From positions 29,005 to 93,004 of IMG/VR virus record IMGVR_UViG_3300010392_000664: DNA of 64,000 nt, one strand, 5' to 3'. The position numbers and the translations under genes are program-made. The notes under the pieces were generated by a model. The model was not told where the DNA came from. It worked only from the letters and a program-made list of their open reading frames with translations, and searched no databases. Of this stretch, positions 6,611-43,242 are shown piece by piece. Positions within the stretch are counted from its first letter, which is position 1; every line of letters begins with the position of its first letter. Origin of the DNA: a virus.

Positions 6611-6907
6611 CTATTTCCGGCTTGGGTCAACCACATTGCCATTTTCGGCAATCAGTTTAGAATCCCCCATAAAATGTTTCCAAATTTTCCAATAATGTTC
6701 AGGATCTCGTACTTCGCTATCCCGAATGAGTCTTTGGCTTCCCCGAACATCCCAGCAATTCAAAAATACCCCACATACCGAAAATGCCTCAACCCGCACT
6801 ATTTGCCCATCTTTAATCTCGGTCAACTCTAAATAAAGTGACGGAGTCTCCTCGACATCATCCTCTTTAAGCCAATCCTGAATTTTTCTTTTAATCCACT
6901 TCAGCAT
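6611..6907 (-). CDS. hypothetical protein
   Basis: Overlapping-operon ORF. Confidence 0.55.
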   Translation of the reverse strand: MLKWIKRKIQDWLKEDDVEETPSLYLELTEIKDGQIVRVEAFSVCGVFLNCWDVRGSQRLIRDSEVRDPEHYWKIWKHFMGDSKLIAENGNVVDPSRK

Positions 6908-7496
6908 TTTTCACCACAAAAATTTTCCGTTTTAATTTTTTTGTTTTTGGTGACAAAACCGCTTCTATGGCACCATGCCGTTTAAATAACTCGTCATACT
7001 CCTCATAGGTGGCCGCATAACAATCTGCTTTATTCCACCTGCGGCCCAAACGATTGTGGTACTTATGCCACTCAACGTAAAGTCTGCCGTCTGGTTTTTT
7101 CAATTCTTTCAACCACGCCTGAACAGCAGCATCCGGATCTCTGGCATGATCCAATGAGTTAGTGTACACCAAATCAAATCGACCAACCCAACTCGACGGC
7201 ACCTCAGTAAAATCAATGCAAACTATCCTTTCTCCATCACACAGATCTTCGAAAATTTCAGTGCCTGTCCATAAAGATTCAGAAGGACTTTTACTTTCGA
7301 ACAAATCTAATTCTTCTCCACGACGAACCCCATGACACAAACCGTGCATCACTGGAGAGCCATGATATTCTAAGATAGAATCTATCACAGACTCCTCAGA
7401 TGAAAATGATGAATTAGGTCTTTTAACCTTTATTTGTGTAGTGTTCCTCTGAGCTTTAATATAGTCGTCGTAGGAATCAAATTTAATTTGTTTCAT
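6891..7496 (-). CDS. class I SAM-dependent methyltransferase-like protein
   Basis: GLCHGVRRGEE (motif I-like), GTEI, FDLVYTNSLDH, LKxPDGRLYV. Confidence 0.7.
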   Translation of the reverse strand: MKQIKFDSYDDYIKAQRNTTQIKVKRPNSSFSSEESVIDSILEYHGSPVMHGLCHGVRRGEELDLFESKSPSESLWTGTEIFEDLCDGERIVCIDFTEVPSSWVGRFDLVYTNSLDHARDPDAAVQAWLKELKKPDGRLYVEWHKYHNRLGRRWNKADCYAATYEEYDELFKRHGAIEAVLSPKTKKLKRKIFVVKNAEVD

Positions 7497-8248
7497 TTTG
7501 TCTTTGCTCCATGATCAACAGTCCCGCCGTCTCGTCCTGCACGAGAATGCCGAATACGGTAAACGTCGAGTATCGCTGCGGCTTTTGATGGGCCTACTTG
7601 TTTCCTGAACGGCACATCTCCTTTGCACGACCGAAAGCCTTGCGAGGGATCAACCCCCTTTGTCCATTTGGTGCCTTTTAGGTAGCCGTTCTTTCGGCAC
7701 CAATCACCTTTGACGATCTGGATGCCCCCTATTGCTCGTTTTTCTCTTCGAAGAACGAATTTTGTCAGGTCAATAGGTTTACTGGGATCATTTATAAGTT
7801 CATCCCCATACTCATGTTTTTCATGAATATTCACATATTGAGGAAACACCATGTTTTCTTCTGCTCCCAGGCATTCATAATATGCATCTTTTAATGAATC
7901 TCTGAAGAAGCAATAATCAACATCTGTGAACCATACAACATCAGCACTTGTTAAACAAGCTGCCCGATTTCTTCCTATTGCTCGCCTGAATAGAGCTTCC
8001 TTTTCAAGATGACAAGGATTAATTCTCAAGGGTCCAGAAGTAACGTCTCGATTTTCACGTGGCAAAACAAAATCTTTTAATACATCAACCGTTGCCATGT
8101 CTTGACGATTAAAGTACACAGATAACGTGACTTCTATGCCATCTTTATGCACTTCAGCTAAACTGGCAAGTTGATGTCGAAGGAGATGATGGTAAATCGG
8201 AACCTCATCCCCGGAATAACAATGTGTGACGATTTCTATTGTTTTCAT
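7493..8248 (-). CDS. GT-A fold glycosyltransferase (GT2/GT7-like)
   Basis: RAIGRNRAA...ADVVWFTDVDY (DxD), IGGIQIV; start probably MKTIEIV. Confidence 0.8.
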   Translation of the reverse strand: MKTIEIVTHCYSGDEVPIYHHLLRHQLASLAEVHKDGIEVTLSVYFNRQDMATVDVLKDFVLPRENRDVTSGPLRINPCHLEKEALFRRAIGRNRAACLTSADVVWFTDVDYCFFRDSLKDAYYECLGAEENMVFPQYVNIHEKHEYGDELINDPSKPIDLTKFVLRREKRAIGGIQIVKGDWCRKNGYLKGTKWTKGVDPSQGFRSCKGDVPFRKQVGPSKAAAILDVYRIRHSRAGRDGGTVDHGAKTK

Positions 8249-8808
8249 TTTACCACGTATCCCCATAACCTATTATCACGAACGTTAATATTCTCTTCAC
8301 CTAAAGAAGAAACCACAGCCCTTTTCACACCTCTATAACCACCCCCGTAGTCATGGCCACACAACAAACCTCCTTGGCGAACTTTAGGCAACCATAATTC
8401 AATATCCTTTTTAACCTCTTTGAATGTATGACATGCATCAATGAAAACGAAATCAAATGTTCCATCAAGATATCGTTTACAGACAAATTCACTTGTTTCT
8501 TTCCAAATAGCAGGAGACACTCCAGGATTAGCTGAATTAATATTTTTTATGGCAGTGTCATAAATGGAATCCCATTGTTTTTGTGACAACTTACCGGTTC
8601 TTTTCATGAAGAAATATTCATCACCTTCTTCCCATTCTCTCCAAGGGTCAACAAAAACCATTGCTATATCTGGAAATGTTGTCAGGATTTTTTTAGATGC
8701 CAACCCCTTGAATACTCCGATCTCGGCTCCTCTATCTGGACTTGGTCCGAGAAATTCTTCGATCATAAGGACTAAGTCCTCTGACATCGGTCTATCCCAC
8801 TTCACCAT
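8245..8808 (-). CDS. Methyltransf_24-type O-methyltransferase
   Basis: GAEIGVFKG, VDPW, FDFVFIDACH, GGLLCGHDY. Confidence 0.88.
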   Translation of the reverse strand: MVKWDRPMSEDLVLMIEEFLGPSPDRGAEIGVFKGLASKKILTTFPDIAMVFVDPWREWEEGDEYFFMKRTGKLSQKQWDSIYDTAIKNINSANPGVSPAIWKETSEFVCKRYLDGTFDFVFIDACHTFKEVKKDIELWLPKVRQGGLLCGHDYGGGYRGVKRAVVSSLGEENINVRDNRLWGYVVK

Positions 8809-9544
8809 TTTCTACCATCCTTTTGAATTCATCAAAATCTTCTTGAGTGTTGATTGATAAAGGAGCTTTTTTATATGTTCTGGTTGCCCCTATTTTATAA
8901 CCATATTCAAGCCATGCTATCTGTTCCAAAGATTTAGATACTGACAGCAAAGTATGACTCAACACATTACAAAGACGCAAAAGAGCATCCTTTTGAAATA
9001 TATAAACACCAATATGCTCTGAACCAGATGATTCATCACGTGAAAACCAAATGCACCTTGACTCAGGGAAACAGCCCCCATGATCGGTTAGTGTTGCTTT
9101 TACAGCATTTCTGTTATTGACTCTGCCTGTGTCAATAATTCCCACTAATGTGCTTATAACAAACTTCCTATTGTTCCTTGAATACAATAATTCAATATCT
9201 TTTGAATCGACAAGAGGTTCATCACATTGAAGATTTATTACATTATTAATGCTGTTAAAAAAGAACTCATCTTCAATCCTAAGAAGTTCTAAAGCTCGTG
9301 CACATCTATGTGTTCCAGTAGGAATATCCAATTCCGTTTTTATGCAATGCAATTCATTTTTTTCACAATACTCATGGATTTCTTTATCCCCACTCACAAC
9401 AAAAACTTGACGAGGTTTTGCACATCTAGCCTTATCATAAGTCCATTTCAACAAAGGACTTCCACCCACTTCTAAAAGAGGCTTACCTGGCAAACGAGAT
9501 GAAGCCATGCTCGCCGGTATCATGATAATTGTGTCATTTTGCAT
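8792..9544 (-). CDS. kdsB: KdsB-like CMP-ulosonate synthetase (cytidylyltransferase)
   Basis: IPASMASSRLPGKPL, TGTHR, INLQCDEP, FSR, HIGVY, LEQI, SINTQED; several canonical residues are substituted. Confidence 0.82.
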   Translation of the reverse strand: MQNDTIIMIPASMASSRLPGKPLLEVGGSPLLKWTYDKARCAKPRQVFVVSGDKEIHEYCEKNELHCIKTELDIPTGTHRCARALELLRIEDEFFFNSINNVINLQCDEPLVDSKDIELLYSRNNRKFVISTLVGIIDTGRVNNRNAVKATLTDHGGCFPESRCIWFSRDESSGSEHIGVYIFQKDALLRLCNVLSHTLLSVSKSLEQIAWLEYGYKIGATRTYKKAPLSINTQEDFDEFKRMVENGEVG

Positions 9545-9553
9545 GTTGTTTTC

Positions 9554-10168
9554 CTAAAAGTAATCGTAGGTTTCACAGAATTCCAATTCTGCAGAAATGA
9601 CGGCTTCTTTTTGTCGCCTATTTGTGATATGTGGAGAACCTTTTCTGGCATTCTGTGGAGTAATTTTTCGAACTTGGCCATCACATGATACACGAGAATT
9701 CCTGAATGTATCGAAGATTTCAATAGCAGATTCAGGATAATCTTCAAGTCGAATAACAGTATTTGCTTTGTACGAATCAAACATCTCAGTGACTCTACCA
9801 GGGAACATCCTGAGATAATTGTTAATAAAAGCCTCAACCGAAGGTGACTTTCGGGCAATCCAACAAAACAGATCGACCCCTACAACGCCCACGGTGCCGC
9901 CACGGAGCGATAGGTAGTAGGAAACTAGCCAATCATACGGATGGCGGATTGTAGTCACCACGAACCCTTTGTGGCCATCAGGTGGTGGGTCATGCAAGTT
10001 CGTCTTCTTCTTATGCCCCAAACCTGCCTCGTAAGCTGCCTTGATAAACCACGTAGTTCCGGTTTTAGGGGCAGCAGCATACTGAAAATCAGTATAGGAT
10101 ATCATTTCCAACTTTCTCATAACAGTCACAGAACCGATGTTGCCATTGTAACTCAACCGCCGGTTCAT
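9554..10168 (-). CDS. PAPS-dependent sulfotransferase
   Basis: 5'-PSB loop PKTGTTW, 3'-PB motif IRHPYDWLVSYY, IRLEDY; true start probably near MISYTDF. Confidence 0.78.
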   Translation of the reverse strand: MNRRLSYNGNIGSVTVMRKLEMISYTDFQYAAAPKTGTTWFIKAAYEAGLGHKKKTNLHDPPPDGHKGFVVTTIRHPYDWLVSYYLSLRGGTVGVVGVDLFCWIARKSPSVEAFINNYLRMFPGRVTEMFDSYKANTVIRLEDYPESAIEIFDTFRNSRVSCDGQVRKITPQNARKGSPHITNRRQKEAVISAELEFCETYDYF

Positions 10169-10790
10169 GTTTTTCTAAAAACATCTCCAAACCATCAACA
10201 ACGTGATGTTTCTTTCTCCCTCGATTCCGGACGTCATCAAAGACCATCCATCCGCCGACTTTGAGAAGTTCAAATGACAACAGGGCATCTTCAAGCACTG
10301 CTGTATCTTCATGATCCCCGTCAATGACAATCAGATCAATTGAATTTTTTGTGAACGGCACATCTTTTACAGCAGCACCTTTTCTGACAAGTTGAGTAAG
10401 GGTATCACTGCTATAACCCCTGACAATTTCAAGCTGATCTCTCCAAGGGGCTAAATTATGAATAGCTCGTGAATGCACTCCATCCATATGATCCTGATCT
10501 AGTTTTCTCGTTGCCGCCCAGGGATCTACCGCAAAAACTCGACTGTCGGGATGTTCCAAGAAGTTTTGCAGGCACCAAATCAAATCCATGCCTTCAAAGA
10601 CACCAATTTGGATCATCTTGATTGGTTCATCCGATGAAAACTTCTTCGGCAGGAAAGTACTCCACGTCACTTGATTTCGTTGCCGAAACCATCGTTTCGT
10701 AAATTTGAAATCGTGAACATCCATATCAATAGGAATGCTTTGTTCATCATCTCGTTTTGCGAAGGCTTGCTTTTTAGAAATTCTAGGCAT
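10089..10790 (-). CDS. Methyltransf_24-type O-methyltransferase
   Basis: IQIGVFEG, VDPW, IDLIVIDGDH, GGWMVFDD. Confidence 0.85.
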   Translation of the reverse strand: MPRISKKQAFAKRDDEQSIPIDMDVHDFKFTKRWFRQRNQVTWSTFLPKKFSSDEPIKMIQIGVFEGMDLIWCLQNFLEHPDSRVFAVDPWAATRKLDQDHMDGVHSRAIHNLAPWRDQLEIVRGYSSDTLTQLVRKGAAVKDVPFTKNSIDLIVIDGDHEDTAVLEDALLSFELLKVGGWMVFDDVRNRGRKKHHVVDGLEMFLEKHEPAVELQWQHRFCDCYEKVGNDILY

Positions 10791-11742
10791 TGACTTCCTC
10801 CTGATACAAGGGGCACTTTTTGGTATGTGTAGTAATCAAACCATCACAATAAAAACACGTATCATCAGACAGATTTTTTACCCTATCCATGTACCTGTTG
10901 AGATACTTATAATCAATTTGAGGCAACCAATCATTAATTTTGCCGACGTTGTTCTCCAGCACTTCCTTAAAAATCGGCTCCCATAGCCATACACCTTTCG
11001 GTGTTTTATTCCATCGAAGATTTGAATCACCATGAAAATGCCATACTTTTACATCATCATCATTCAAATAAGGCGGTTGGAATTTTGGTGAACAATTAAA
11101 CGCCCCGCCCAAGTGCACGTGCATATCATTAGGTGAAAAAATAGATGGTAGAAGATGAAGAACAGTTTCATCCGCAATGAAAATATCCTGAACTTTATAA
11201 GTCAAGGAAAACCATTTTTCCAACACCGGAGAGTTGGGACAAGCAGAAAAAATCCCGCCGTTAAGTGATGGGAACTTATTGGCGGGATTCAAAACCCGGC
11301 GAACATGAGACTGATCAATCCCATCTCTTCCTTCGAGGCGAGAGATTCGTTTATTGACAATTCTGCCAACAGCTACCCAGTCATTGAATTGAGTAGCAGA
11401 AAAACTAATGCCGTTGTTCAGTACATCGAATAGCTGTTCGATGTCGCCCTGCACCACGGTGTCGGCGTCCAGGTATAAAACACGATCGGCCTCAACTTCC
11501 TGCATTAACCGAATCTTATCCATGAATTGACGATTACGCCTATTGTAATTCGGCTTTTCTCTTTCATGAGCAGTGATTCTTAATTGCCTGTGCGAAGCTA
11601 TTTCCTGAACAAGAGGGTAACTTTCCGGCCACGCATAAACTTCAACAGGACCATCCCATACTTTTCTAAGGGAATGGATGCTGGCGACAAGGTAAGGGAG
11701 GTGGCCTTCACCGCTCATCAGATACACTACTTTATGATTCAT
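10783..11742 (-). CDS. GT8-like glycosyltransferase
   Basis: KIRLM...RVLYLDADTVVQGDIEQLF, LNGGIF, DETVLH, VWHFHG. Confidence 0.82.
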   Translation of the reverse strand: MNHKVVYLMSGEGHLPYLVASIHSLRKVWDGPVEVYAWPESYPLVQEIASHRQLRITAHEREKPNYNRRNRQFMDKIRLMQEVEADRVLYLDADTVVQGDIEQLFDVLNNGISFSATQFNDWVAVGRIVNKRISRLEGRDGIDQSHVRRVLNPANKFPSLNGGIFSACPNSPVLEKWFSLTYKVQDIFIADETVLHLLPSIFSPNDMHVHLGGAFNCSPKFQPPYLNDDDVKVWHFHGDSNLRWNKTPKGVWLWEPIFKEVLENNVGKINDWLPQIDYKYLNRYMDRVKNLSDDTCFYCDGLITTHTKKCPLYQEEVNA

Positions 11743-12062
11743 TACTCTCCTTCGAAATCTTTGCAGTCACCCAAAATCATTACATTGGCACCTTTTAAAC
11801 CAGCATACTTGATTGCCATTCCTAAAAGCATATATTCATCATCGTCATATGCCGCAGCGAAGGCATCTTGATGCAGGGCCACAAATTTAGCTTCTCCCTC
11901 GGCTACAAGACGGACAGATTCCACAAATTCAGGGAGGTACTTATGCACTGTATCCCATAGAATTGCCTTTCTTGTATTAAATTCTTTTTTAGACACCTTT
12001 GGTCCCGACACCCCAGGTGTCAATTTTTTAGCTTTTGAAAAATCTTGTTGTTTTTGAATCAT
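11742..12062 (-). CDS. hypothetical protein
   Basis: Translationally coupled ORF within the glycosylation cluster. Confidence 0.6.
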   Translation of the reverse strand: MIQKQQDFSKAKKLTPGVSGPKVSKKEFNTRKAILWDTVHKYLPEFVESVRLVAEGEAKFVALHQDAFAAAYDDDEYMLLGMAIKYAGLKGANVMILGDCKDFEGE

Positions 12063-12862
12063 TAACCGACCTTTTTATTATGAGCCCATCTTGCATACGA
12101 ATCTGGACAAGAACAGTAACGGGGATCGAAATGATCCTCGTCTACATAAATGGCATCGAATTGACCGATAACAGAACGATGAGTATGAGTCCAAACCTGA
12201 TAAAATCCCAGTTTAACTAATTCAAGATGAACTTCATATGGTGATGCCCAACCACCCTTGTTGCGAGGTTTCCCGGTCATCTCTACATTGATGACTTTGA
12301 CGTGATTCTTGATAAACTTTTTGCCACCACGAATAACCAATGCTTCACTGCCTTCACAGTCAAGCCATAAAAGACATTCCTCATTTTCAAATGACATCAT
12401 ATGGTGACTAAAAAAATCATCTAAAGTCGTAGTAAGTACCGACACCGGACGAGTTTTATTTTGATCCCCGTCATTTTTCTTTTTGTAGAATGAAGACCCA
12501 TCTTTCCAACTACGGCTCACATAAAGAATCTCTGAACCAATCTGATCGGATAAAGCCTTATCAGTTAAGTAACCGGGGAACTTATCCTTAATGGATTTAC
12601 AAATCTCCGGCGAAGGTTCGAATCCGTACAACTCAAAACCTTCGAAGTTTTCTCGCATGACTTCCGTTTCATGATGCCGCATACCGACACCGCCCATTAC
12701 AATCAAATCAGGATTAAATTCAAGCAGTTTGCAGTACTCCACTACTGCGTTTCCTGATCGACGATGAACCTTACTTCGATGTGGTTTTTTAATTAAATCC
12801 TTCAAGAGACTTCTCCACTTCCTTACGAACTGAACTTGTTGAAGAACAATGTTTCCAGCCAA
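12062..12862 (-). CDS. FkbM-family methyltransferase
   Basis: YGFEPSP, KALSD, GSSF, TTTLDDF, LWLDCEGSE..VIRGG. Confidence 0.85.
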   Translation of the reverse strand: MAGNIVLQQVQFVRKWRSLLKDLIKKPHRSKVHRRSGNAVVEYCKLLEFNPDLIVMGGVGMRHHETEVMRENFEGFELYGFEPSPEICKSIKDKFPGYLTDKALSDQIGSEILYVSRSWKDGSSFYKKKNDGDQNKTRPVSVLTTTLDDFFSHHMMSFENEECLLWLDCEGSEALVIRGGKKFIKNHVKVINVEMTGKPRNKGGWASPYEVHLELVKLGFYQVWTHTHRSVIGQFDAIYVDEDHFDPRYCSCPDSYARWAHNKKVG

Positions 12863-13601
12863 GATTTTTCATGTTGGTGCAAATCACCGAATGCCCCATC
12901 CGCTTTGCCATATACCAATGATACCCATCTTGCGACCGAACCGGCAGCATTCCTTTGTCGCATGTAGCTATGGCATGAGCTGCACATACCTTAGTGAATT
13001 CAGTATTAAAAAACGCACACCATGAAATGATTCTTTTATGCCGCAACCGACTCCACCCATCCTTCGGTTTTAAATTCAAAGGAGGACTCACTTCATCATC
13101 AAAAACGGAATGTTCTTCAGCCCATCTATCCAATTGAATCATTTGATCCGCTGGTTTAGTAAATCCCCAGGGATGTGAAATGATAGCTGGGTTACCTTCA
13201 AACCATTCCTGATCCACCCAACCCCCATCATGTCTTGTGGCTACTGTATCAAGATCTAATTTAAGCCAATATCGGGTATTCACATACCATGCTGGGACAT
13301 AAACAAAGCCCGCAAGCATTTTATACCTTTGCGGACAAGTCCACTTATTCGAAGGATCACCTGGGTACACAACACCCACTTCTGACCAAGGGACAAGTGA
13401 TATTTTTGTAGTATAAAAGCTCAAATGAGAATCAAGCACATCCCAAACTTCATGATGGGTCACCTGTTCTCTGTCATAAAAAATTACAAATTTATGCTTA
13501 AAAAGATCTGGTTTATGTTTCTTCCAAGTAGGCAGAACGAGATTAAGCTGAGCTAAGTGTTTTCTGTCAACACCCAAAACCACGGTATAGTCATCATACA
13601 T
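12789..13601 (-). CDS. putative GT-A glycosyltransferase
   Basis: TRYWLKLDLD (DxD) motif, SQDGYHW, position among glycosylation genes. Confidence 0.6.
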   Translation of the reverse strand: MYDDYTVVLGVDRKHLAQLNLVLPTWKKHKPDLFKHKFVIFYDREQVTHHEVWDVLDSHLSFYTTKISLVPWSEVGVVYPGDPSNKWTCPQRYKMLAGFVYVPAWYVNTRYWLKLDLDTVATRHDGGWVDQEWFEGNPAIISHPWGFTKPADQMIQLDRWAEEHSVFDDEVSPPLNLKPKDGWSRLRHKRIISWCAFFNTEFTKVCAAHAIATCDKGMLPVRSQDGYHWYMAKRMGHSVICTNMKNLGWKHCSSTSSVRKEVEKSLEGFN

Positions 13602-14776
13602 TAAAAGAAACCCCCCTTTGCGGCTTGGGTTGTTTTATCAGGTCTTTTTGATCGTACCACCCCACGTTGCAGACGAGTCTTTATAATCTCGCAATACTCT
13701 TCCTGCAATTCGACACCAACTGCCCTACGCCCAAGTAATCTAGCAGCAACCAAAGTAGTTCCAGATCCGCTAAATGGATCCAAAACAACACCATCTTTTG
13801 GGGTTACAAGTTTAATGAGATACCTCATTAATTCCAATGGCTTGACAGTAGGGTGATTGTTTGCAGCACCCTTTTCCAGGGCATCGGCTTTTGGGCAATA
13901 AAAGAACCGAGCAACCGATCCATTTGCATCCGTCGGAAAGATATCAATAACTTCATCACTTCCGTCGTGCATAAGATTCGCTGGGAATCTCCCAGGAGTC
14001 AAATCAGCAAGCACAACATCACAAGCATTAAATACTTTTTTAGATGTGCGAGGGCCGACCCATTGCTTTCTGGCGTCAGTCAACTTGTCCTGATCCTCTG
14101 CAGGAATTCTGCATTCCCGAAGATTCAACCCGCCAGTTCCATGCTTCAAAACATTTTGAGCTACGGTTCCTTCAAATGACTTGCGTGCCATTGTAATCGG
14201 TTCCATGCAAGGTTTGATGGCAGTTCCCCAGCCATCCCATATTTTTGCCTCTTCAGTAGCGGGTGCCGATACCGGGACAAGGCCAGTTTCGGGGTCAGGT
14301 GCGTTTTCTGGCCTTGCGGTAAAACTACCTACCGTCACCCGTCCGTTCGCGTCCTTGCGACCAGCGTGCAACCCTGCCGCCTTATGGCCGATCACTTCGC
14401 GAGTAGCCCCAGCTTCAATATCAATTCTTTTGCCGATGTCGGTAGATTTCGGGAAACCTTCCCCATAAATCCATGCCAGCATGTCCCTGATCTGAAACCC
14501 GGCATCTTCGATGTTGATGGCCATTCTGTGCTGGGTGCGAGTTCCGGCAAATGCTAATACATGGCCTCCAGGTTTCAGTACACGGAGACATTCCTCCCAT
14601 ACTGCTTTTACTGGAACATCGTAGTCCCATTTTTTTGCCATAAAATTGATTCCGTAAGGAGGATCTGTGACGACAGAATGGATACTGTCGTCAGGAATCT
14701 CTTTCATCATTTCTAAGCAATCCCCATTCAAAAGGGTGATGCCAAGATTCTCATCCTCATAATACGGTTCTTTCAT
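13601..14776 (-). CDS. beta-class N6A/N4C DNA methyltransferase
   Basis: GDCLE, VVTDPPYG, HPTVKPLELM, VLDPFSGSGTT; start probably MKEPYY. Confidence 0.93.
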   Translation of the reverse strand: MKEPYYEDENLGITLLNGDCLEMMKEIPDDSIHSVVTDPPYGINFMAKKWDYDVPVKAVWEECLRVLKPGGHVLAFAGTRTQHRMAINIEDAGFQIRDMLAWIYGEGFPKSTDIGKRIDIEAGATREVIGHKAAGLHAGRKDANGRVTVGSFTARPENAPDPETGLVPVSAPATEEAKIWDGWGTAIKPCMEPITMARKSFEGTVAQNVLKHGTGGLNLRECRIPAEDQDKLTDARKQWVGPRTSKKVFNACDVVLADLTPGRFPANLMHDGSDEVIDIFPTDANGSVARFFYCPKADALEKGAANNHPTVKPLELMRYLIKLVTPKDGVVLDPFSGSGTTLVAARLLGRRAVGVELQEEYCEIIKTRLQRGVVRSKRPDKTTQAAKGGFF

Positions 14777-15843
14777 TTTTTCCTTCTTCTGTTCTTTTTC
14801 TTTTTCTCTTTGAAATACCACCCATCACAATCAAACGGCTCTTTCGGAAAGAACTGCAGGGCATCCTCAACTGCTAAATCAAATGGAGCATAATCAAATG
14901 CAGCTAAATGTGAATTCTGATTACAGTTAAATATTTCTAATCCGAACTTAGAAAATATTCCTTTTTGCTGCATTTCGCATAACCATTGATTGACGATCTT
15001 ATATTGATTATTGTTTGACCGAACTGCTCCTTCATCCCGGACTTCTCGGAAGGCATAATTGTCATGAAGATCCCGTCGTGGATCCATATACATATCCACT
15101 CCGACAAGATAAATTCTTCTTGCTCCCAGATAGTATAGTACTCTGATGGCAAGTAATAACGTACAAACCGTCTTCATTCCTCCAGTTTTTTTCACACCGG
15201 CATCCAGGTTTCCCCAAGCAGCATGATCATCTAAGAAAAATGATTCATCAGGAATCAACCACGATCGTCTACCGAATCCCCAGACATTTGGGCAATGGCA
15301 AGCAGACACCTTGTTTCCATTGATGAATAATTGCTGAAAACTACCATCTTCTTTTTTCCGCAGCCCACCCCTGTTCACCCGCATTTTCGGTGTAGGAACA
15401 AACTTCATAACTCTAGGATCTTGCCAAATCCCATTATGAAATTTACTGGGAGGATCCGCACAGATGAAAGCGGAAGCCCGATAATACGCCGCCATATTAT
15501 TTACGGCTAAAGAAAAGATGCCCCGTTGCTCGATTTTAGAAAGATCAAGCTGACGTGCGGAAGGACCACCTGCTACGAGAAAAGCAGTTCCATTAGCAAG
15601 CAAATTCCGCAAAGCATGAGTTTTTACTCCACACCAATCCTGAATAACAAGATCATCCTGAAATCGTTTATCAAAACATTTTGCATCTAATGTGAGTCTT
15701 TCACAACAGTCTTCGCATGAAGCATAAGGAAAATTCAATCCTGTTTTTGTGCAGACCTCATGTATAGCACATTTATAGGTTTGTCTTCCATCATCGGTTT
15801 TCTTATCGGGCAAAGCCTCTTTTAGATACACGCACTTGGGCAT
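14773..15843 (-). CDS. Maf/DUF115 (sialyltransferase-like) protein with N-terminal Cys-rich domain
   Basis: AFLVAGGPSA, LAVNN, ICADPP, AIRVLYYLGARRIYLVGVDM, IFNCN; Cys cluster in the first ~55 aa. Confidence 0.72.
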   Translation of the reverse strand: MPKCVYLKEALPDKKTDDGRQTYKCAIHEVCTKTGLNFPYASCEDCCERLTLDAKCFDKRFQDDLVIQDWCGVKTHALRNLLANGTAFLVAGGPSARQLDLSKIEQRGIFSLAVNNMAAYYRASAFICADPPSKFHNGIWQDPRVMKFVPTPKMRVNRGGLRKKEDGSFQQLFINGNKVSACHCPNVWGFGRRSWLIPDESFFLDDHAAWGNLDAGVKKTGGMKTVCTLLLAIRVLYYLGARRIYLVGVDMYMDPRRDLHDNYAFREVRDEGAVRSNNNQYKIVNQWLCEMQQKGIFSKFGLEIFNCNQNSHLAAFDYAPFDLAVEDALQFFPKEPFDCDGWYFKEKKKKNRRRKK

Positions 15844-30430: not shown

Positions 30431-31003
30431 TTACGATTGACTGCTAGAGTTACTAGATGCCGAACTGCTCGATTGACTGCTGCTCGATAACGAGGAGGAT
30501 GTCGAGCTAAAGGAACTCGGTGAGCTACTCGATGGTGAGCTACTTGACGATTGAGAACTGCTCGATGTCGATTGAGAACTGCTAGAGCTTGAAGAACTGA
30601 CCGAGAAGGAACTTGTGGAGCTAACCGAACTCTGGGAACTGCTCGATTGACTACTGCTCGATTGAGAAGAGCTGGAAGAAAGATCTTCCATCGAAAGAAC
30701 AGAAAGCCGATCCCCTGACGAAGGTCCAGGAAATTGCAATTCACCGGTGTGGAAATTCAAAACATCCGTAGTTGATGTTTCCCCGGAATTTAGCACATCA
30801 ACCAATTTTGCTTGCCAGATAGTGTTACTCGGAAGAGCAACAGTGACATTTTCAACTACCCCTGCATCAGCACTATGCTGTGCTGCTGGAGCAGAATCAT
30901 CACCTGCTCGATGCATTCTTGTGATAGTCAAGGTGCGGGTAGCCAAATTGGAAGGTGCCGGTCCCAGACCAAAAGTAACATTTTTCATTTCTGACTTCTC
31001 CAA
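30431..31003 (-). CDS. small beta-sandwich protein with ~82-residue C-terminal poly-Ser tail
   Basis: Ser tract 30434-30679; located in the head module. Confidence 0.7.
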   Translation of the reverse strand: MEKSEMKNVTFGLGPAPSNLATRTLTITRMHRAGDDSAPAAQHSADAGVVENVTVALPSNTIWQAKLVDVLNSGETSTTDVLNFHTGELQFPGPSSGDRLSVLSMEDLSSSSSQSSSSQSSSSQSSVSSTSSFSVSSSSSSSSQSTSSSSQSSSSSPSSSSPSSFSSTSSSLSSSSQSSSSASSNSSSQS

Positions 31004-33214: not shown

Positions 33215-34875
33215 TATTTAGATTCTAATAACAGGGCAGGTGGTTTTTCTTCCTGCAGCCCACCTTTTGACAAGACGGATTCTATCAAACTCTGTGGAGT
33301 TTCAATAAGAGCATCTACCGACAGCTTCAGAGCTTTGGCCGCATCATCCAATGCTTGATCTTCTGGTGAGGGTGGGTCACCCTCACTTGGCGGAAATCCT
33401 CCTTGGTCTTGCGGAGGATCTTGTTCAATTTTGTCACCGGCGATTTGATTTGCGAGATCATCGGGCAACCCCAATCCGATTAGAATACCACGACCTTGTT
33501 CTACGGAAATCGTGCCTTCAGCCACAGCTTCAGCAGCATTCACTACTCCATGAATGTTTTGCTTTGAGATATAAGCCTCATTACCATCAACATCAGGAGG
33601 CAGGCCCATAAAAGCTCTGAATTCATTTTGTGTGATGTCACCACGATCCCTTGCTTTCTCGTACATGGTTTTTTCCATGCTGGGATCTGTTGCAACGCAC
33701 GGCTCTGACCATACCCGGTACTTTTCCTGCACTTTATTTGTTTGCGATTTATTAGCAAACCCGGTGAGGATAATCCCCAGCATGTCAAGAAAAGCATTCA
33801 CTCTTTGGCAAAAGCGATCCTGAACCACAAACGCCTGAGCATAACTACCGGCCATTTCTTCACCCAAGATAAATGGATGAACTCCAAAAGCCGACAAAAT
33901 TCTGGATCGGATTGCCTTTTCTGACTTTTCCCACCCCATTTCATTCTGGGTAGCCGACAGACGTTCGATTTTGTCAATATACCCATCAATGATAGCCGGA
34001 TTGCCATAATCAGCTACTCCCTTACTGACTCGGCCAATAGCTCCATGAACCTGCCTACGTTGGGCAGCAGTCAACCGAGGCCGGATACCTGCCGGGACGT
34101 CGGGGTGAGGATTTGTTCCCATTGTGATAATGACAGACGGGAACACACCATTTTCAAAAAACACCTTTTGTGAATTTTGAATATGATCATCAATACTGAT
34201 AGCGTTGTTTTGTGAATGGGCAGGTGCCATTGCTTTAGTGACATCCGACGGATCCGGTATGTAGGCAAATCCTACCTGATCCCTACTGAATGGTTCAGCG
34301 TTATATGATTTTGAAGGGTCATTTGGATTCACAATCTTAAATTCAGAGAATGCACCTTTCTCATGAATAGGCTGTACCCAGGTAGTGGGCAACGAAAACA
34401 TTTCAAACTTACCTTCACCATTCTCACCACCAAAGATGTAACTCCATCCGGTAAGATTTAAATTGGCAATGAAATTATAAACGAATTGCCATTTGCCCTG
34501 AATGGCATTCGGTTGACTTAATGCATCCAAAAAAGGATGATCAACAATAACCTCTTCCTCGTTCAAAGCTGATTTATGGGAAACCGACTTTGATGAAGTC
34601 CATTGCTTCTTATCAGTTTTTGAATTCATTTTAGACATTACAATGGACTTAGAAGCACCCTCCATTGCAATAGCATTCACTGCCGCATGCACCCAACCCC
34701 TGAAAAGAGCATACCGTTGCCTGTTACCGGATTGGCTTTGCATACCAGCAGTTAAAGAACCGGTCCCTAGATCGAAATCAAAGGAACCGGCTTGTTTCAT
34801 TCTCAAAGCCTGCTCATACGTTGATCGTGAACGGGCTTTAGACCGAGCTAAAGATTTTGTCAAAGCACTAGCCAT
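33214..34875 (-). CDS. portal protein
   Basis: WVHAAVNAIA, DHPFLDALSQPN, NLNLTGWSY, FFENGVFPS, ILSAFGVHP, ITQNEFRAFMGLPP. Confidence 0.92.
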   Translation of the reverse strand: MASALTKSLARSKARSRSTYEQALRMKQAGSFDFDLGTGSLTAGMQSQSGNRQRYALFRGWVHAAVNAIAMEGASKSIVMSKMNSKTDKKQWTSSKSVSHKSALNEEEVIVDHPFLDALSQPNAIQGKWQFVYNFIANLNLTGWSYIFGGENGEGKFEMFSLPTTWVQPIHEKGAFSEFKIVNPNDPSKSYNAEPFSRDQVGFAYIPDPSDVTKAMAPAHSQNNAISIDDHIQNSQKVFFENGVFPSVIITMGTNPHPDVPAGIRPRLTAAQRRQVHGAIGRVSKGVADYGNPAIIDGYIDKIERLSATQNEMGWEKSEKAIRSRILSAFGVHPFILGEEMAGSYAQAFVVQDRFCQRVNAFLDMLGIILTGFANKSQTNKVQEKYRVWSEPCVATDPSMEKTMYEKARDRGDITQNEFRAFMGLPPDVDGNEAYISKQNIHGVVNAAEAVAEGTISVEQGRGILIGLGLPDDLANQIAGDKIEQDPPQDQGGFPPSEGDPPSPEDQALDDAAKALKLSVDALIETPQSLIESVLSKGGLQEEKPPALLLESK

Positions 34876-37626: not shown

Positions 37627-37992
37627 TTATGTGTCTTCTAAAATAAAGATCTGTCGATCCACATTTTTCCATTCACCTACGTCCGCATTATCAAAATAAT
37701 CCAAAAATAAGGTGTAGACTCCAGGATCAAAGGTTAGATCACTGGCGTCAATTCTCAACCTATTTTTTCCGGAGGTAGGGGAATTTTTTGAAAAACTACT
37801 GCCGTTATCGGTATCTGCATCACTATCTACGCTAAATTGGGCATCTGCTAAAGCCGTTCCCAATCTACCGACACGACCAACAACCGCTCGGATTTTATCG
37901 TTTGACTGGGGTATTATCACACTAGAGTCAGCCTTAAGGATTTGAAAATCTTTAGTAAAGCCCCGATTTTTGTATGCGTAGATAATTGCCAT
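37627..37992 (-). CDS. small Ig-like virion protein (possible collar/fibre anchor)
   Basis: RIDASDLTFDPGVYTLFL beta-rich pattern; between the fibre genes and the connector. Confidence 0.5.
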   Translation of the reverse strand: MAIIYAYKNRGFTKDFQILKADSSVIIPQSNDKIRAVVGRVGRLGTALADAQFSVDSDADTDNGSSFSKNSPTSGKNRLRIDASDLTFDPGVYTLFLDYFDNADVGEWKNVDRQIFILEDT

Positions 37993-38013: not shown

Positions 38014-40608
38014 TTAGGACAAGGGCACCTCACAAGTTGCACTTTTTGGACTTACAATAATTCCAGCAGAGCTACTTGATGACTCGGAACTTGATGTTGA
38101 AAGACTTTGGCTGCTTGATTCGGAAGAACTGCTCGATGAGCTTACTGAACTACTCGATACCGATGAACTACTTGATGATGAGCTACTGCTGCTACTTGAT
38201 ACGGACGAGGATGAGCTACTCGATTGTGAAGATCTACTGGATGCCGAACTACTTGAATGAGATGATTCAGAAGAACTGCTGGATTCCGAAGAAGCCGACG
38301 ATACCGATGAGCTACTTGATGACTCACTCGATTGTGAACTGCTTGTAGATGATTGACTCGATGAACTACTTGATGATGATTCACTAGATCCCGACGATCG
38401 ACTAGAAGCTGAGCTACTTGATTTACTTGATGAGGTAGAACTTGATGAGCTACTTGATAATGACGAAGATGAGCTACTCGACTCGGAACTACTTGACGAG
38501 CTAGAGGCCGAAGACGGTGACGAGGACGACTCACTAGAAGCCGACGACGAACTAGCCGAGGAACTACTCGACGACGCAGACGACGACGATTCTGACGACG
38601 ACGACGACTCTGATGACGAAGTTGACGATGAGCTAGAGAGTGATGATGAACTTATCGATGAACTACTGGTTGAGCTTATCGAAGATGATGAGCTACTTGA
38701 TGATGCAGACGACTTGCTTGACGCAGAACTACTGGATCGACTGCTTGACAAGCTGCTTGATGATTCAGATGAACTGCTCGACGAGCTTACTGACGAGGAA
38801 GAACTGCTCGATAACGAGCTACTCGAACTGCTCGACAACGAACTACTTGACGAAACACTCGAAACACTACTGCTTGATATGGATGATCTACTAGAAGCAG
38901 AGCTACTTGATTGGCTACTCGCGGAACTGCTACTTGATTGGCTACTGGCAGAACTACTCGATTGACTGCTGCTTGATACCGATGAACTACTTGATGATGA
39001 TAAGGAAGAAGATGAAGACTCTGACGACTGGCTAGATGTAGAAACCGACGACCGGCTAGATGCAGAACTGCTTGATTTACTAGATGACTGTGAGCTACTT
39101 GAAACCGATGAGCTACTTGAAGATGAAACCGACGAGCTGCTTTGACTTGACACCGACGAACTAGAGGTGCTGCTACTGGATGTGCTGCTACTAGAGCTGC
39201 TGTTACTGCTAGATGTCGATGAAAAACTCGACGGTGAACTTGATGAAACAGATGATGACGTTGAATTTGACGGAGAACTACTGCTACTTGATTGACTACT
39301 GCTTGAACTGCTAGACTGACTGCTAGACGATTGCGAACTTACTGATGAAGATGATTGACTGCTAGATGATTGACTAGATGACGAATGACTAGATGACGAA
39401 GATTGGCTACTCGTAGAAGATACTGACGATTGACTACTACTGGATAATTCGGAAGACGAACTACTTGATTGCCCGCTGCTTGATTCTGAAGATGACGAAC
39501 TGTTGACAGAAGATAGCGAACTACTACTGCTCGACAAAGATGAAGATGAACTGCTTGATACAGATGAACTGCTTGATACGGATGAAACAGATGACGAACT
39601 GCTTGACAGGCTACTGCTAGAACTACTCGATACGCTTGAAGATGAAGATGTAGAAATCGAACTGCTTGACACCGACGAGTAACTCGAAGGTGAGCTTGAC
39701 GATAACGAAGAGGATACGGAACTACTAGAACTGTTTACAGATGAAACAGAACTACTTGACACCGAAGAAACAGATGACTGACTAGATGACGAAAACGACG
39801 AAGGTGAACTGCTGCTCGATCTACTTGATTCTGATGTACTTGAAGCCGAACTACTCGACAAAGATGACACACTCGATACCGACGAAGATGACGATTCCGA
39901 TTGTGAAGAAGATGACGAAAGACTTGATAAAGAACTTTCTGATGAACTACTCGAATTAATAGATGATAAGCTACTGCTTGATGAAGAATTTATTGAAGAT
40001 AAGGAACTACTGCTTGACGAATTCAATGACGACGGAGAACTGCTTGACGCAGAACTACTGGAACTTGAATTTACAGATGACGAAGAATCAGAGCTACTCG
40101 ATGACTCATCTGCCGCAGTGTAGTATACCGTTATTGTCAAGTGATCAACATATGCAACAGCACCTTCACCAGAATTAGAACCTCCCGTTACTGATACAGC
40201 AAAACCAAATGTTGATGCATTTATATCAGAATCAGTCCAGGTCTCTCCCCACAAGTAGGATGAACCTCCCAATGCACGAGAAGTTTCTGCACCTGACCAA
40301 GATAAGGTTTGATCCGTAGAACCAATGGATCCACCTTTGACTATTCGGGCAGCGTTATGACTCAGCACGCCGGTGAGGTCGTTGTCCCCACTTTCAGGAG
40401 TAACAACAATTCCATCTATCGTTGCTCCAGATGGGATTGAAAACCCGAAGCTCTGGAATAGAAGGTAGTGGGAAGTCGCAGATTCTACGTCAGCCGTCGC
40501 CCGCGAATCATCGCTTGACGCAGCATTTGAAGGATTCGACCATGACACAGTACCCACTGAAGCATCGTCAGAGATCGAACCGGATGAATTTGGGCCTTCC
40601 GATGCCAT
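38014..40608 (-). CDS. fibre-like protein: ~165-aa beta-sandwich + ~680-residue Ser-rich tract + short C-terminal peptide
   Basis: N-domain WSNPSN...FGFSIPSGATIDGIVV; Ser tract 38068-40104. Confidence 0.85.
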   Translation of the reverse strand: MASEGPNSSGSISDDASVGTVSWSNPSNAASSDDSRATADVESATSHYLLFQSFGFSIPSGATIDGIVVTPESGDNDLTGVLSHNAARIVKGGSIGSTDQTLSWSGAETSRALGGSSYLWGETWTDSDINASTFGFAVSVTGGSNSGEGAVAYVDHLTITVYYTAADESSSSSDSSSSVNSSSSSSASSSSPSSLNSSSSSSLSSINSSSSSSLSSINSSSSSESSLSSLSSSSSQSESSSSSVSSVSSLSSSSASSTSESSRSSSSSPSSFSSSSQSSVSSVSSSSVSSVNSSSSSVSSSLSSSSPSSYSSVSSSSISTSSSSSVSSSSSSSLSSSSSSVSSVSSSSSVSSSSSSSLSSSSSSLSSVNSSSSSESSSGQSSSSSSELSSSSQSSVSSTSSQSSSSSHSSSSQSSSSQSSSSVSSQSSSSQSSSSSSSQSSSSSSPSNSTSSSVSSSSPSSFSSTSSSNSSSSSSTSSSSTSSSSVSSQSSSSVSSSSSSSVSSSSQSSSKSSSSASSRSSVSTSSQSSESSSSSLSSSSSSSVSSSSQSSSSASSQSSSSSASSQSSSSASSRSSISSSSVSSVSSSSSLSSSSSSSLSSSSSSSVSSSSSSSESSSSLSSSRSSSSASSKSSASSSSSSSSISSTSSSSISSSSLSSSSSTSSSESSSSSESSSSASSSSSSASSSSASSESSSSPSSASSSSSSSESSSSSSSLSSSSSSSTSSSKSSSSASSRSSGSSESSSSSSSSQSSTSSSQSSESSSSSSVSSASSESSSSSESSHSSSSASSRSSQSSSSSSSVSSSSSSSSSSSSSVSSSSVSSSSSSSESSSQSLSTSSSESSSSSAGIIVSPKSATCEVPLS

Positions 40609-40617
40609 TTGCTTACT

Positions 40618-41061
40618 TTAATCAATAGTAGCAATTAATGCCGTCAAAGCATCCCGCAACCCTGCGGTCTGTCCCGGTGTAAATGTTCTTACACTCACTC
40701 CAGTTGGAGTCAAAATATCTTTCAAGATATAAGTCCCGTCATCAGGGAAGTTCGTGGATATCCAAGAAACGACGGAATCTATAGCGGCTATCATAGTATT
40801 GAATTCTGCCACAATATCCAGACCGATATCTTCAAATTGTTCTTGAGCATAGGCAGCAATACCTGGTGTTGCTTTGATTTCGTTAAATTCTTCATTTGCG
40901 TTAATGCATTGTCGATATATTTCAAGAACAACATTTGCCGACACATCATCGGCTTGCATAGCACTCACATAATTAGTGGATCGTTCTTTTATCAGACCCG
41001 CCAATTCTTGTGCTTTCTCAAGAGCCACAGCTTGAGAACTATTGGTTGCCGGAAATGCCAT
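40618..41061 (-). CDS. hypothetical helical protein
   Basis: GGAG RBS, 147 aa. Confidence 0.7.
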   Translation of the reverse strand: MAFPATNSSQAVALEKAQELAGLIKERSTNYVSAMQADDVSANVVLEIYRQCINANEEFNEIKATPGIAAYAQEQFEDIGLDIVAEFNTMIAAIDSVVSWISTNFPDDGTYILKDILTPTGVSVRTFTPGQTAGLRDALTALIATID

Positions 41062-41073
41062 AATATTTATCTC

Positions 41074-43242
41074 CTAAATCAAATCAGAAGCCGACGACGA
41101 AGCCGGTTCATTATTTGTTAAAACCGACGATTCTGACGGTCCTGTACCTTCTACCGTTTTACCGACTGGAAAATCAAGGATCCCTTCGGAACTACTTGTG
41201 CTGGAGCTGCTTGATTGTGAAGAAACACTGGATTGACTTGAGCTTGACACACTTGAACTAGAAACCGAGGACTCGCTTGAACTTTGTGAACTTACTTCCG
41301 ATTGACTGGAACTGCTTGAACTTTGTGAACTTGCGGAACTGCTCGATACTGAAGAAATGCTTGATGAAGAAATTGACGAAGAACTGAAACTTGATAAGCT
41401 CGATGCACTAGATGATGAAAAACTACTTAATGACGAGACACTTGACACACTCGATGAAGAAGCAGATGAGATGCTTGATGCACTGGATACCGAAGAATTG
41501 CTTGATGACGATACCGATGAGCTACTTAATGATGATACTGATGAAACACTTGATGAGGAAACAGATGAGACGCTAGAACTACTAAATGAACTACTGGAGC
41601 TAGAATTTATTGAACTTAATGAACTGCTTGAACTACTCGAATTTTCTGCCGATTGAGAACTTGAGCTGCTTGAATTCAGTGATGATGGGCTGCTAGAGCT
41701 ACTTGAATTTATTGATGATAGGGAACTGCTGCTTGATACACTAGATGCACTAGAACTGCTTGAATTTAAACTGCTTTGTGAACTACTGGAACTGCTTGAA
41801 TTTACAGATGACAGAGAACTAGAACTACTCGATGAATTTACAGATGACAGAGAACTACTGGAACTGCTTGAATTCACCGATGACAGAGAACTTGAGCTGC
41901 TGGAGTTTATAGATGAGGATGAGCTATGTGAGCTTGAACTACTGGAATTTAAACTACTAGACGAACTGCTTGACGTTCCAAGAGAAGATAACGAACTACT
42001 GGAGCTGCTCGATGAATTTAATGAACTACTGGATGAAGTCAGGGAACTCGAGCTTGATGTTCCAAGAGAAGAGGAAGGTGAAGAAGACGAGCTGCTCGAA
42101 TTTACCGATGATGGAGAACTGGAACTACTGGATGAATTTAAGCTACTTTGTGAACTACTAGAACTGCTCGAATTTATTGAAGATGATGAATGACTAGAAC
42201 TTGAGCTGTTGATGCTGCTTTGTGAACTGCTCGATGATGAATTATCACCACCTCTCAATTCATTTCCATCAAATGCACCTATACTCCAAGTAGTTGCCCC
42301 AGCATTACGATCATACCCTGTAATGTCTAATTCTACATCTGTTGGAGTTGTTCCATAATCATTGCCCGCCTCGAATATATCAGCATCCACATCTTGAATA
42401 TGGTAGTCTTCACTGCCTACCGTTGTAGAAACGAACTGATTCGCTCTTGTTATCGAATCAATGGCACCCGTTCCACTTGCTGATGTATCCTCTGCTGCAT
42501 TGTATTCAGTTTGAGCATTAGTTGGTGAAGCCAAACTGTAATCTTGAATAGTACCAGAAGTAGATCCGCTAACTCCCGTAACAACGCAATTTTTATATTC
42601 ATTATTTGCATTGTCACCCATCGCCAAACCGTAACAACTGCCGGTTCCAAGATTATTGACAATGTTATCAACAGTTACGTTGAACACTTCTTGAATACGG
42701 ACATTATTTGCAGTTGAACAATAAACTCCTGTCACAACATTCGCAGTAGAGGCCGAGTTTGATATTCCATAAACCACACTATTATGAAATTCACAACCAC
42801 CATTGAGAACTTTGAAACCATTTTGACTATTATTATTGGATGTGCAATCATGCAAGATCAACCACTTATAGAAATTTTGACTATTTCTATCTGTACCTGA
42901 CCGAGCATCATAAACAATCCCCTCATTAGAACCGACACTAAAACCAGCGACATCTATATCCAACCATTCTACAGTAGTATTTGGAACCGCAACAGATACG
43001 ACACTGTCATTATCTGTTCTTACAATCTCTACTCCGGTGCCTTCAGTCCCGTCATGCCTATGTCCAGATGCTACCGATAGCGTAATATCATCAGGATCTG
43101 TGTCATTAATAATGACAGCTTCATCAAATGGAGAATCGTCGTAGCATTCACCAAGTTGGGATCCCGTTCCTAGAGCTGCCTCCCACGAAGCTATTGTTGT
43201 GTAGTCTCCGGTTCCGTTTGATCTAATAGCTAAAGTTGGCAT
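41074..43242 (-). CDS. pectin-lyase-like beta-helix + ~350-residue Ser-rich tract + short C-terminal peptide
   Basis: GDYTTIASWEAA, Asn-ladder repeats, DYHI...DITGYDR...WSIGAFD; Ser tract 41188-42240. Confidence 0.85.
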   Translation of the reverse strand: MPTLAIRSNGTGDYTTIASWEAALGTGSQLGECYDDSPFDEAVIINDTDPDDITLSVASGHRHDGTEGTGVEIVRTDNDSVVSVAVPNTTVEWLDIDVAGFSVGSNEGIVYDARSGTDRNSQNFYKWLILHDCTSNNNSQNGFKVLNGGCEFHNSVVYGISNSASTANVVTGVYCSTANNVRIQEVFNVTVDNIVNNLGTGSCYGLAMGDNANNEYKNCVVTGVSGSTSGTIQDYSLASPTNAQTEYNAAEDTSASGTGAIDSITRANQFVSTTVGSEDYHIQDVDADIFEAGNDYGTTPTDVELDITGYDRNAGATTWSIGAFDGNELRGGDNSSSSSSQSSINSSSSSHSSSSINSSSSSSSQSSLNSSSSSSSPSSVNSSSSSSSPSSSLGTSSSSSLTSSSSSLNSSSSSSSSLSSLGTSSSSSSSLNSSSSSSHSSSSSINSSSSSSLSSVNSSSSSSSLSSVNSSSSSSSLSSVNSSSSSSSQSSLNSSSSSASSVSSSSSLSSINSSSSSSPSSLNSSSSSSQSAENSSSSSSSLSSINSSSSSSFSSSSVSSVSSSSVSSVSSLSSSSVSSSSNSSVSSASSISSASSSSVSSVSSLSSFSSSSASSLSSFSSSSISSSSISSVSSSSASSQSSSSSSQSEVSSQSSSESSVSSSSVSSSSQSSVSSQSSSSSTSSSEGILDFPVGKTVEGTGPSESSVLTNNEPASSSASDLI

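Follow-up and report, generated by a model that had tools for sequence, protein, structure and literature searches.

Poly-serine proteins of an uncultured tailed-phage clade as probable acceptors for a co-encoded Maf-type glycosylation cluster

Here, a 64,000-nucleotide stretch of viral DNA (the window: bases 29005-93004 of the 93,004-bp IMG/VR virus record IMGVR_UViG_3300010392_000664; 43% G+C) was analyzed with regard to two features, namely long poly-serine (poly-Ser) tracts in proteins of the head and tail modules and a string of putative glycan-modifying enzyme genes that follows the tail genes. The record represents a tailed, 93-kb phage from a large, wholly uncultured clade. We consider it probable that the poly-Ser tracts of these particle-module proteins are O-glycosylation acceptors for the co-encoded cluster, this being the best and most economical reading of the tracts themselves, of the enzyme families and folds, of their clade-wide co-conservation and of the Ser-rich neighbours of bacterial homologues. 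In the following, genes are named by the lower coordinate of their open reading frame (ORF) in the window.

Long poly-Ser tracts were found in four proteins of the head/tail modules (38014, 41074, 30431 and 24118) and short ones in two tail-end proteins, which confirms the six Ser-rich proteins pointed out in this region by a first-pass annotation of the same DNA. Lengths are given in amino acids (aa):

41074..43242, minus strand: 722-aa protein with a tract of ~360 aa (about aa 336-697) containing 260 Ser
38014..40608, minus strand: 864-aa protein, 65% Ser, with a tract of ~690 aa (about aa 166-854) containing 530 Ser
30431..31003, minus strand: 190-aa head-module protein, 104-aa conserved N-domain followed by an 86-aa poly-Ser C-terminal tail (aa 105-190)
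24118..24843, minus strand: 241-aa protein, jelly-roll N-domain (model) followed by a 53-aa poly-Ser C-terminal tail (aa 188-241)
18328..19230, minus strand: distal-tail protein of 300 aa, in which aa 62-89 form a short Ser-rich insert
16202..18331, minus strand: 709-aa tail-end (fibre-position) protein with a Ser-rich C-terminus

All six types of Ser codon occur intermixed within the tracts, and Tandem Repeats Finder (TRF) detected only short local repeats of 2-4 copies in the tract DNA; therefore, the tracts appear to be selected at the protein level and not to be satellite DNA. The earlier figure of more than 1,000 potential acceptor residues holds when Ser is counted over the six whole proteins (~1,100), but not when the count is restricted to the tracts (~926).

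The tails of the two smaller proteins are retained in nearly all relatives: of 92 complete and distinct 24118 homologues, 91 have a poly-Ser C-terminal tail (24-705 aa, median 76, about 72% Ser), as do 52 of 53 distinct 30431 homologues (30-633 aa). The 24118 gene occupies the slot of a major tail protein, between the neck genes and the tape-measure gene. Its product matched phrog_22694 as the only PHROG family, one of unknown function, and was modelled with a jelly-roll N-domain (predicted local distance difference test, pLDDT, 78.6), the best structural matches being jelly-roll proteins, among them Ena pili and small virus coats, with Z ≤7.2 (VIA-align; Foldseek on PDB and BFVD). The sole clade member found whose 24118 homologue is devoid of the poly-Ser tail is L150, a 12,917-bp IMG/VR contig, in which the protein (9272-9844) ends '...LLGRGV' and displays a small internal Ser/Asp-rich loop in place of the tail. 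No ORF with a poly-Ser tail was present on the forward (structural-gene) strand of this contig, which stops inside the tape-measure gene, before the position of the cluster; a metagenome scan for longer versions yielded this 12.9-kb contig alone. In the relative G005, a second 24118-type jelly-roll paralogue of 888 aa (54122-56788; L032:14122-16788) carries ~500 aa of poly-Ser followed by a Gly-rich C-terminal domain, and its gene is located between the tape-measure gene (~51.8 kb) and the distal-tail genes.

The two giant proteins are organized differently. The 38014 protein consists of a 165-aa N-terminal domain, the Ser tract and a C-terminal peptide (GIIVSPKSATCE...), and the 41074 protein of an N-terminal domain of ~333 aa, the Ser tract and a conserved C-terminal peptide (GILDFPVGKTVEGTG...). 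Judged by its sequence, the N-terminal domain of the latter looks like a beta-helix; it had no Pfam or PHROG match. In relatives, a large poly-Ser protein with an unrelated N-domain is encoded in the equivalent position, immediately upstream of the homologue of the 37627 gene. Moreover, the peptide [FW]-P-x-[GS]-K-[TS]-[VI]-x-x-[VI]-G, located after the tract, is common to the giant proteins of the window (38029-38064 and 41149-41184) and of the relatives G001, G003, G006, G007 and G008, which suggests a common docking site. We propose that the Ser tract of the giant proteins may be a stalk joining an exchangeable head domain to this probable docking peptide. A docking partner of the giant poly-Ser protein may be encoded by the gene next to it:

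37627..37992, minus strand: conserved 121-aa protein, directly downstream of the giant poly-Ser gene and always so in relatives

The enzyme genes lie directly downstream of the tail genes and on the same strand, as a string of minus-strand ORFs running from 16147 to 6891. The ORFs overlap or abut with a spacing of at most 10 nt, with one gap of 55 nt at 16147-16202, and the same-strand, coupled arrangement described in the first-pass annotation was thus confirmed. Products were assigned as follows, with GT denoting glycosyltransferase families, SAM S-adenosylmethionine and CMP cytidine monophosphate:

14773..15843, minus strand: Maf-type (MptE-like/DUF115 superfamily) glycosyltransferase, 356 aa, anchor gene of the cluster; phrog_4603 'alpha-2,3-sialyltransferase', E 3e-9
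13601..14821, minus strand: N6/N4 DNA methyltransferase, between the Maf-like and GT-A genes; PF01555, E 1e-35
12789..13601, minus strand: GT-A-fold glycosyltransferase of a mostly viral family, with a DxD-type 'DLD' motif; structural similarity (TM score 0.63-0.73) to GT15, GT8 and GT2 clusters
12062..12862, minus strand: FkbM-family SAM methyltransferase; PF05050, E 2e-12
10783..11742, minus strand: GT8 (glycogenin-like, retaining GT-A) glycosyltransferase; PF01501, above cut-off
10089..10790, minus strand: Methyltransf_24/O-methyltransferase; Pfam, E 3.5e-17
9554..10168, minus strand: sulfotransferase-like protein; 'PKTGTTW' and 'RHPYDWLVSYY' motifs, evidence at the motif level
8792..9544, minus strand: KdsB-like CMP-3-deoxy-manno-octulosonate (CMP-Kdo) synthetase; PF02348, E 2e-27, above cut-off
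8245..8808, minus strand: Methyltransf_24 SAM methyltransferase; Pfam, E 3e-15
7493..8266, minus strand: GT2-like GT-A glycosyltransferase; TarP 6h1j, E 6.5e-4
6891..7496, minus strand: probable class I SAM methyltransferase, weak evidence; 6f5z, E 0.054

The three GT-A glycosyltransferases reported earlier (12789, 10783 and 7493) were recovered. For 10783, the PF01501 match was short but above the cut-off (27.8 versus 24.3 bits), a profile of six homologues matched glycogenins at E 1e-4, and D92-A-D94 (the DxD motif) was invariant. The enzyme previously described in general terms as a CMP-ulosonate synthetase can be specified as KdsB-like: in addition to PF02348, it matched the NCBIfam KdsB models with E values of 1e-45 to 1e-28, all under the curated cut-offs, and PseF at E 0.056, while no NeuA match was obtained. 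The sulfotransferase assignment stood in part, since both motifs of the type that binds 3'-phosphoadenosine 5'-phosphosulfate (PAPS) are present, whereas the hidden Markov model matches of the family were below threshold (PF00685 at E 0.14 in one of five members; SULT1C3 at E 0.25). Of four homologues, three retain both motifs in substituted form, and in the remaining one (L027) the first motif is degenerate; the true start of the ORF is probably Met22. As for the four SAM methyltransferases proposed, 8245, 10089 and 12062 were supported by Pfam and 6891 weakly, and one methyltransferase in the stretch, 13601, is a non-conserved DNA methylase. The latter is an insertion particular to this genome and lies outside the conserved glycan cluster, because it is present in none of 29 related loci; its homologues are found elsewhere in the genomes of the relatives G001 and G003.

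None of the cluster enzymes has a predicted transmembrane segment, and no Wzx/Wzy-like gene is present in the cluster, which is consistent with cytoplasmic protein glycosylation. Promoter-like and terminator-like sites in 4000-23000, that is, in and around the enzyme string, were no commoner than in shuffled sequence. Between the fibre-position and Maf-like genes, the ORF 15803-16147 encodes a small protein of 114 aa, which is not conserved in most relatives; it contains a single helix of strong hydrophobicity and weakly matched a zinc ribbon.

The Maf-like protein was assigned by means of fold-level tools, which were needed because PDB sequence-profile searches with the Maf-like and 12789 families gave nothing useful. 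The AlphaFold2 model, based on an alignment of 46 sequences, reached a pLDDT of 95.2. Its top PDB match in VIA-align was the flagellin O-glycosyltransferase Maf from Magnetospirillum (5mu5; Z 13.1, root-mean-square deviation 3.9, 198 aa), followed by MptE HPPK (Z 9.9), SteA (9.3) and sialyltransferases (8.4-8.7). Foldseek returned sialyltransferases, MptE and Maf, and the structural matches in the ESM Atlas belonged to MptE-like and WaaZ_KDO_III clusters. As modelled, the protein has a Maf-type catalytic fold, i.e., the Maf/sialyltransferase-like nucleotide-sugar fold, and the Maf/DUF115-like transferase proposed before was in this manner confirmed at the fold level, its PF01973 score being below threshold. 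Matches to PF01973 below threshold were likewise obtained for four of eight clade members (best E 9e-4). The aligned part of the 632-aa Maf 5mu5 comprises residues 254-517 only. The N-terminus of the phage protein is Cys-rich and zinc-ribbon-like and is conserved in the phage clade, bacterial homologues being without it. No flagellar genes were found in the window by family scans of its ORFs. By analogy, the enzyme would transfer a CMP-activated ulosonic acid to Ser/Thr, as is indirectly supported by the adjacent KdsB-like gene together with the activity published for CbMaf from Clostridium botulinum, which transfers Kdo and N-acetylneuraminic acid (Neu5Ac) from CMP donors to Ser/Thr (PMC11339370). 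The published transfer of Kdo from CMP-Kdo by a Maf enzyme fits the KdsB-like gene next to the Maf-like gene (PMC11339370).

Relatives of the phage were gathered with head-protein, 24118-domain and Maf-like queries, and well over 100 IMG/VR contigs, all belonging to one clade, as well as 381 Maf-like homologues were obtained. The tblastn searches of GenBank phages gave no match with the major head protein or the 24118 N-domain and, among 50,697 records, no match at E 1e-3 with the Maf-like protein or GT-A 12789; since homologues of these four proteins were not detectable in GenBank phages, the lineage is known from metagenomes only. The cluster was present in every related contig that reaches past the tail genes. 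Gene presence was counted at 29 distinct loci with at least 8 kb of downstream sequence, for which the Maf-like gene served as anchor and is hence present by construction. GT-A 12789, GT8 10783 and GT2-like 7493 were each found with the Maf-like anchor in 29 of 29 loci, and the accessory methyltransferase genes were found less regularly (8245 in 25, FkbM 12062 in 22, 10089 in 18 and 6891 in 10). An independent distribution of poly-Ser genes and the Maf/glycosyltransferase cluster in related phages, which according to the first-pass annotation would have refuted its reading, was not observed; the coupling is clade-wide, within this one clade. In the relative G007 (L046), a GT8-like and a Maf-like gene (11756-12577 and 16520-17359) lie amid head/connector genes and not after the tail genes, which indicates that the cluster can move within the structural module. 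In the relative G003, four GT2-like paralogues of the 7493 family occur in the cluster (L027 1223-4792; G003 39756-40544), which suggests diversification of the glycan.

The Maf-like catalytic domain also has 192 bacterial homologues among species-representative genomes, at 31-36% identity. Neighbourhoods were analyzed for the best 80 of these 192, and the results given below refer to this set, which derives mostly from Planctomycetota (Phycisphaerales, Planctomycetaceae, Pirellulaceae), Verrucomicrobiota and Victivallaceae. At 55 of the 80 loci, an ORF rich in Ser or in Ser/Thr was found, usually adjoining the Maf-like gene. Up to 1.5 kb from the gene, the density of Ser tracts was 23.5 per 100 kb, as compared to 0.4-2.7 at a distance of 1.5-10 kb in the same loci, so that Ser-rich proteins occur beside the bacterial homologues at about ten times the background. 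The partner proteins vary by lineage and comprise Hint-domain, RHS-type and giant proteins. In Phycisphaerae, the partner is a Ser/Gly/Thr-rich Hint (intein-like) protein of ~500-540 aa, the start of which overlaps the stop of the Maf-like gene (e.g., L253:9641-12279; loci L225-L303). In Verrucomicrobiota and Planctomycetaceae, partners are RHS-type or giant proteins of 2,000-2,400 aa, and a neighbour in Verrucomicrobiota is an RHS/YD-repeat protein of ~2,000 aa with a Ser-rich N-terminus. This association provides independent support in a context unrelated to phage structure. The distribution of the homologues hints, weakly, at a bacterium of the Planctomycetota-Verrucomicrobiota-Chlamydiota (PVC) group as the phage host.

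Following this, we propose a sequence of events in which the chemistry of each step, the enzyme order and the placement of the proteins in the virion are all inferred. The cluster, encoded immediately after the tail genes, would be expressed late and yield soluble enzymes. The KdsB-like enzyme would convert Kdo made by the host, or a closely related ulosonic acid, into the CMP-activated form, which the Maf-type transferase would subsequently attach to Ser hydroxyls or use to cap a glycan. The GT8-like, GT2-like and viral-family GT-A enzymes could then add or extend hexoses, and the FkbM and Methyltransf_24 methyltransferases as well as the sulfotransferase-like protein may decorate the sugars. 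The outcome would be a mucin-like brush on the free C-terminal tails of the 24118 and 30431 proteins, and the Ser linkers of the two giant proteins (~360-690 aa) would be stiffened between the variable N-terminal head and the C-terminal docking peptide. A wider proposal is put forward tentatively: an O-glycosylation system for Ser tracts that has not been described before may be common to Planctomycetota/Verrucomicrobiota-type bacteria and a large clade of their presumed phages. A compact Maf-type enzyme would recognize homopolymeric Ser and, in the phages, seed a mucin-like coat of the Kdo type, methylated and sulfated, on proteins of the head and tail modules and of the fibres.

Several points weigh against the proposed glycosylation of the tracts. 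The identity of the 24118 protein as tail tube could not be confirmed, as its structural matches were generic jelly-roll proteins and no tube protein was listed among them, and the 30431 protein sits in the head module with no role assigned. In PF01973, the Maf-like protein scored 13.6 bits and missed the gathering cut-off of 34.6, and the flanking domains of flagellar Mafs are missing from it, which bears on acceptor recognition. Of the 29 loci, only 17 contain the KdsB-like gene and only 22 the sulfotransferase-like gene. Moreover, the most divergent Maf-like phage loci (32-35% identity) carry the same head-protein family, and no independent phage lineage was found; all phage examples thus belong to one clade, and their co-occurrence amounts to roughly one evolutionary event. 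Among the bacterial loci, many (Phycisphaerales) are orthologues of one another, and the tenfold enrichment therefore suggests more independent associations than there are, perhaps four or five.

Accordingly, alternative explanations have to be weighed. The enzymes might be auxiliary and act during infection on glycans of the host surface or on Ser-rich surface proteins of the host, for example to block superinfection or change receptors, with the phage Ser tracts being unmodified flexible spacers or entropic bristles. Lipopolysaccharide (LPS) and capsule pathways likewise typically comprise KdsB-like, GT8, GT2-like, methyltransferase and sulfotransferase-like genes, the MptE-like fold is found in WaaZ-type Kdo transferases as well, and the bacterial Maf-like homologues work in a cellular context. 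In both giant proteins, furthermore, the Ser tract is clearly an interdomain linker and not a free tail, being preceded by a variable N-terminal head and followed by a conserved C-terminal peptide. However, a linker role is hard to fit to the free C-terminal tails without a downstream domain that are seen in 91/92 and 52/53 homologues, the cluster is located in a late structural gene string and has no membrane-embedded or lipid-carrier components, the top structural match is the protein O-glycosyltransferase Maf and no lipid-glycan transferase, and the bacterial homologues adjoin Ser-rich proteins and not LPS genes. Remodelling of the host is considered unlikely.

The Ser tracts could also be modified in another manner (a single sugar, phosphorylation, or the action of host enzymes), while the cluster makes a separate product. 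The fact that gene neighbourhood is the sole link of the individual enzymes to the tracts and that several cluster genes are dispensable across the clade would be in line with this; yet four transferases are retained in 29 of 29 loci along with the tails, and the Maf-like family is independently tied to Ser-rich proteins in bacteria, which renders this explanation more improbable still. Hypermodification of the phage DNA by base glycosylation or methylation deserves hardly any credence. It is suggested by the N6/N4 DNA methylase inside the cluster in this genome, but none of the 29 related loci has this gene in its cluster, family scans of the cluster genes revealed no base-hydroxymethylase or the like, and we know of no DNA modification that involves a CMP-Kdo-type donor or the Maf fold.

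The glycosylation of poly-Ser tracts as favoured here would be a variation on Maf-type O-glycosylation and on phage virion glycosylation, both of which are already known. A limited literature search found no paper on poly-Ser acceptors with Maf-type clusters in phages. The phage enzyme resembles the Maf flagellin O-glycosyltransferases (Magnetospirillum magneticum 5mu5, CbMaf) in the fold of the catalytic domain and in being a soluble cytoplasmic enzyme, in the CMP-ulosonic acid donor expected for both, CbMaf accepting CMP-Kdo (PMC11339370), and in acceptors that are Ser/Thr residues of a polymerizing surface structure, as is presumed for the phage. By contrast, it is a protein of 356 aa in which the Cys-rich N-terminus replaces the flanking domains and the similarity to PF01973 is sub-threshold, and its presumed acceptor is a disordered poly-Ser tract as compared to folded flagellin loops, without a flagellar context.

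To our knowledge, virion glycosylation has been demonstrated experimentally in only a few mycobacteriophages. In these phages it alters recognition by antibodies. According to the accounts of Freeman et al. (2023) given in PMC12363180 and PMC11256854, the virions of the mycobacteriophages Che8, Corndog and Myrna are glycosylated by phage-encoded transferases, which are proposed to form a glycan shield on the phages' own structural proteins, as is envisaged here. The present system differs in that the Maf-like enzyme and GT-A 12789, the only two enzymes compared, have no match in GenBank phages, in that the presumed acceptors are poly-Ser tracts of 24-705 aa, and in the further enzymes that the cluster is predicted to encode (Maf-type transferase, CMP-Kdo synthetase, methyltransferases and sulfotransferase-like protein).

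In Gram-positive cocci, the adhesins GspB, Fap1 and PsrP contain very long Ser-rich tracts, to which soluble glycosyltransferases encoded alongside, GT8 enzymes among them, add sugars in the cytoplasm, giving stalk-like glycoproteins. The phage shares with them very long Ser-rich tracts and co-encoded soluble glycosyltransferases including GT8. However, its tracts are near-homopolymeric Ser and not dipeptide repeats, and no GT4, GtfA or GtfB family, and hence no GT-B initiating pair of the GtfA/GtfB type, was found in Pfam scans of every ORF in 6891-16147. No Sec component turned up in the family scans of window ORFs and no LPXTG anchor was noticed, scans in which many upstream ORFs were not included and SecA2/SecY2 and LPXTG were not specifically searched for. 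Poly-Ser linkers are also known from secreted carbohydrate-active enzymes of some Gammaproteobacteria and Bacteroidota. There, as in the two giant phage proteins, long homopolymeric Ser joins a functional domain to another module, whereas most phage tracts are free C-terminal tails that are co-conserved with the glycosylation cluster.

If the tracts are indeed glycosylated, the glycocalyx of the virion would comprise hundreds of sites on each polypeptide and greatly exceed the mycobacteriophage cases in density, and poly-Ser would represent a simple, genetically encoded acceptor tag. If the clade as a whole coats itself, self-glycosylation would be a common trait of environmental phages, as the more than 100 IMG/VR contigs and the 381 Maf-like homologues suggest, and could newly bear on how phages adsorb, behave as colloids and adhere to particles or mucus in water and sediments. 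The compact Maf-type enzyme might also be of use in glyco-engineering. Moreover, the location of the bacterial homologues next to Ser-rich proteins of the Hint and RHS types suggests that PVC bacteria possess a protein-glycosylation system as yet unexplored.

With respect to the overall layout, essentially all genes from 1 to ~57,200 lie on the minus strand. Structural landmarks were assigned by PHROG and Pfam scans. A terminase was not identified by family scans of window ORFs, many upstream ORFs being outside those scans. The landmarks are:

33214..34875, minus strand: portal protein; phrog_2662, E 5e-27
32111-33214: head-morphogenesis protein
28270-29754: protease/scaffold-like protein
26527..28191, minus strand: major head protein; phrog_10, E 1e-9, with 49-65% identity among relatives
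25354-25815: neck-type protein
20205..22310, minus strand: tail tape-measure protein; phrog_9959, E 5e-57

Upstream of both giant poly-Ser genes, the ORF 44339-46645 encodes a CEMIP-type right-handed beta-helix protein of 768 aa, which is likely a depolymerase or spike.

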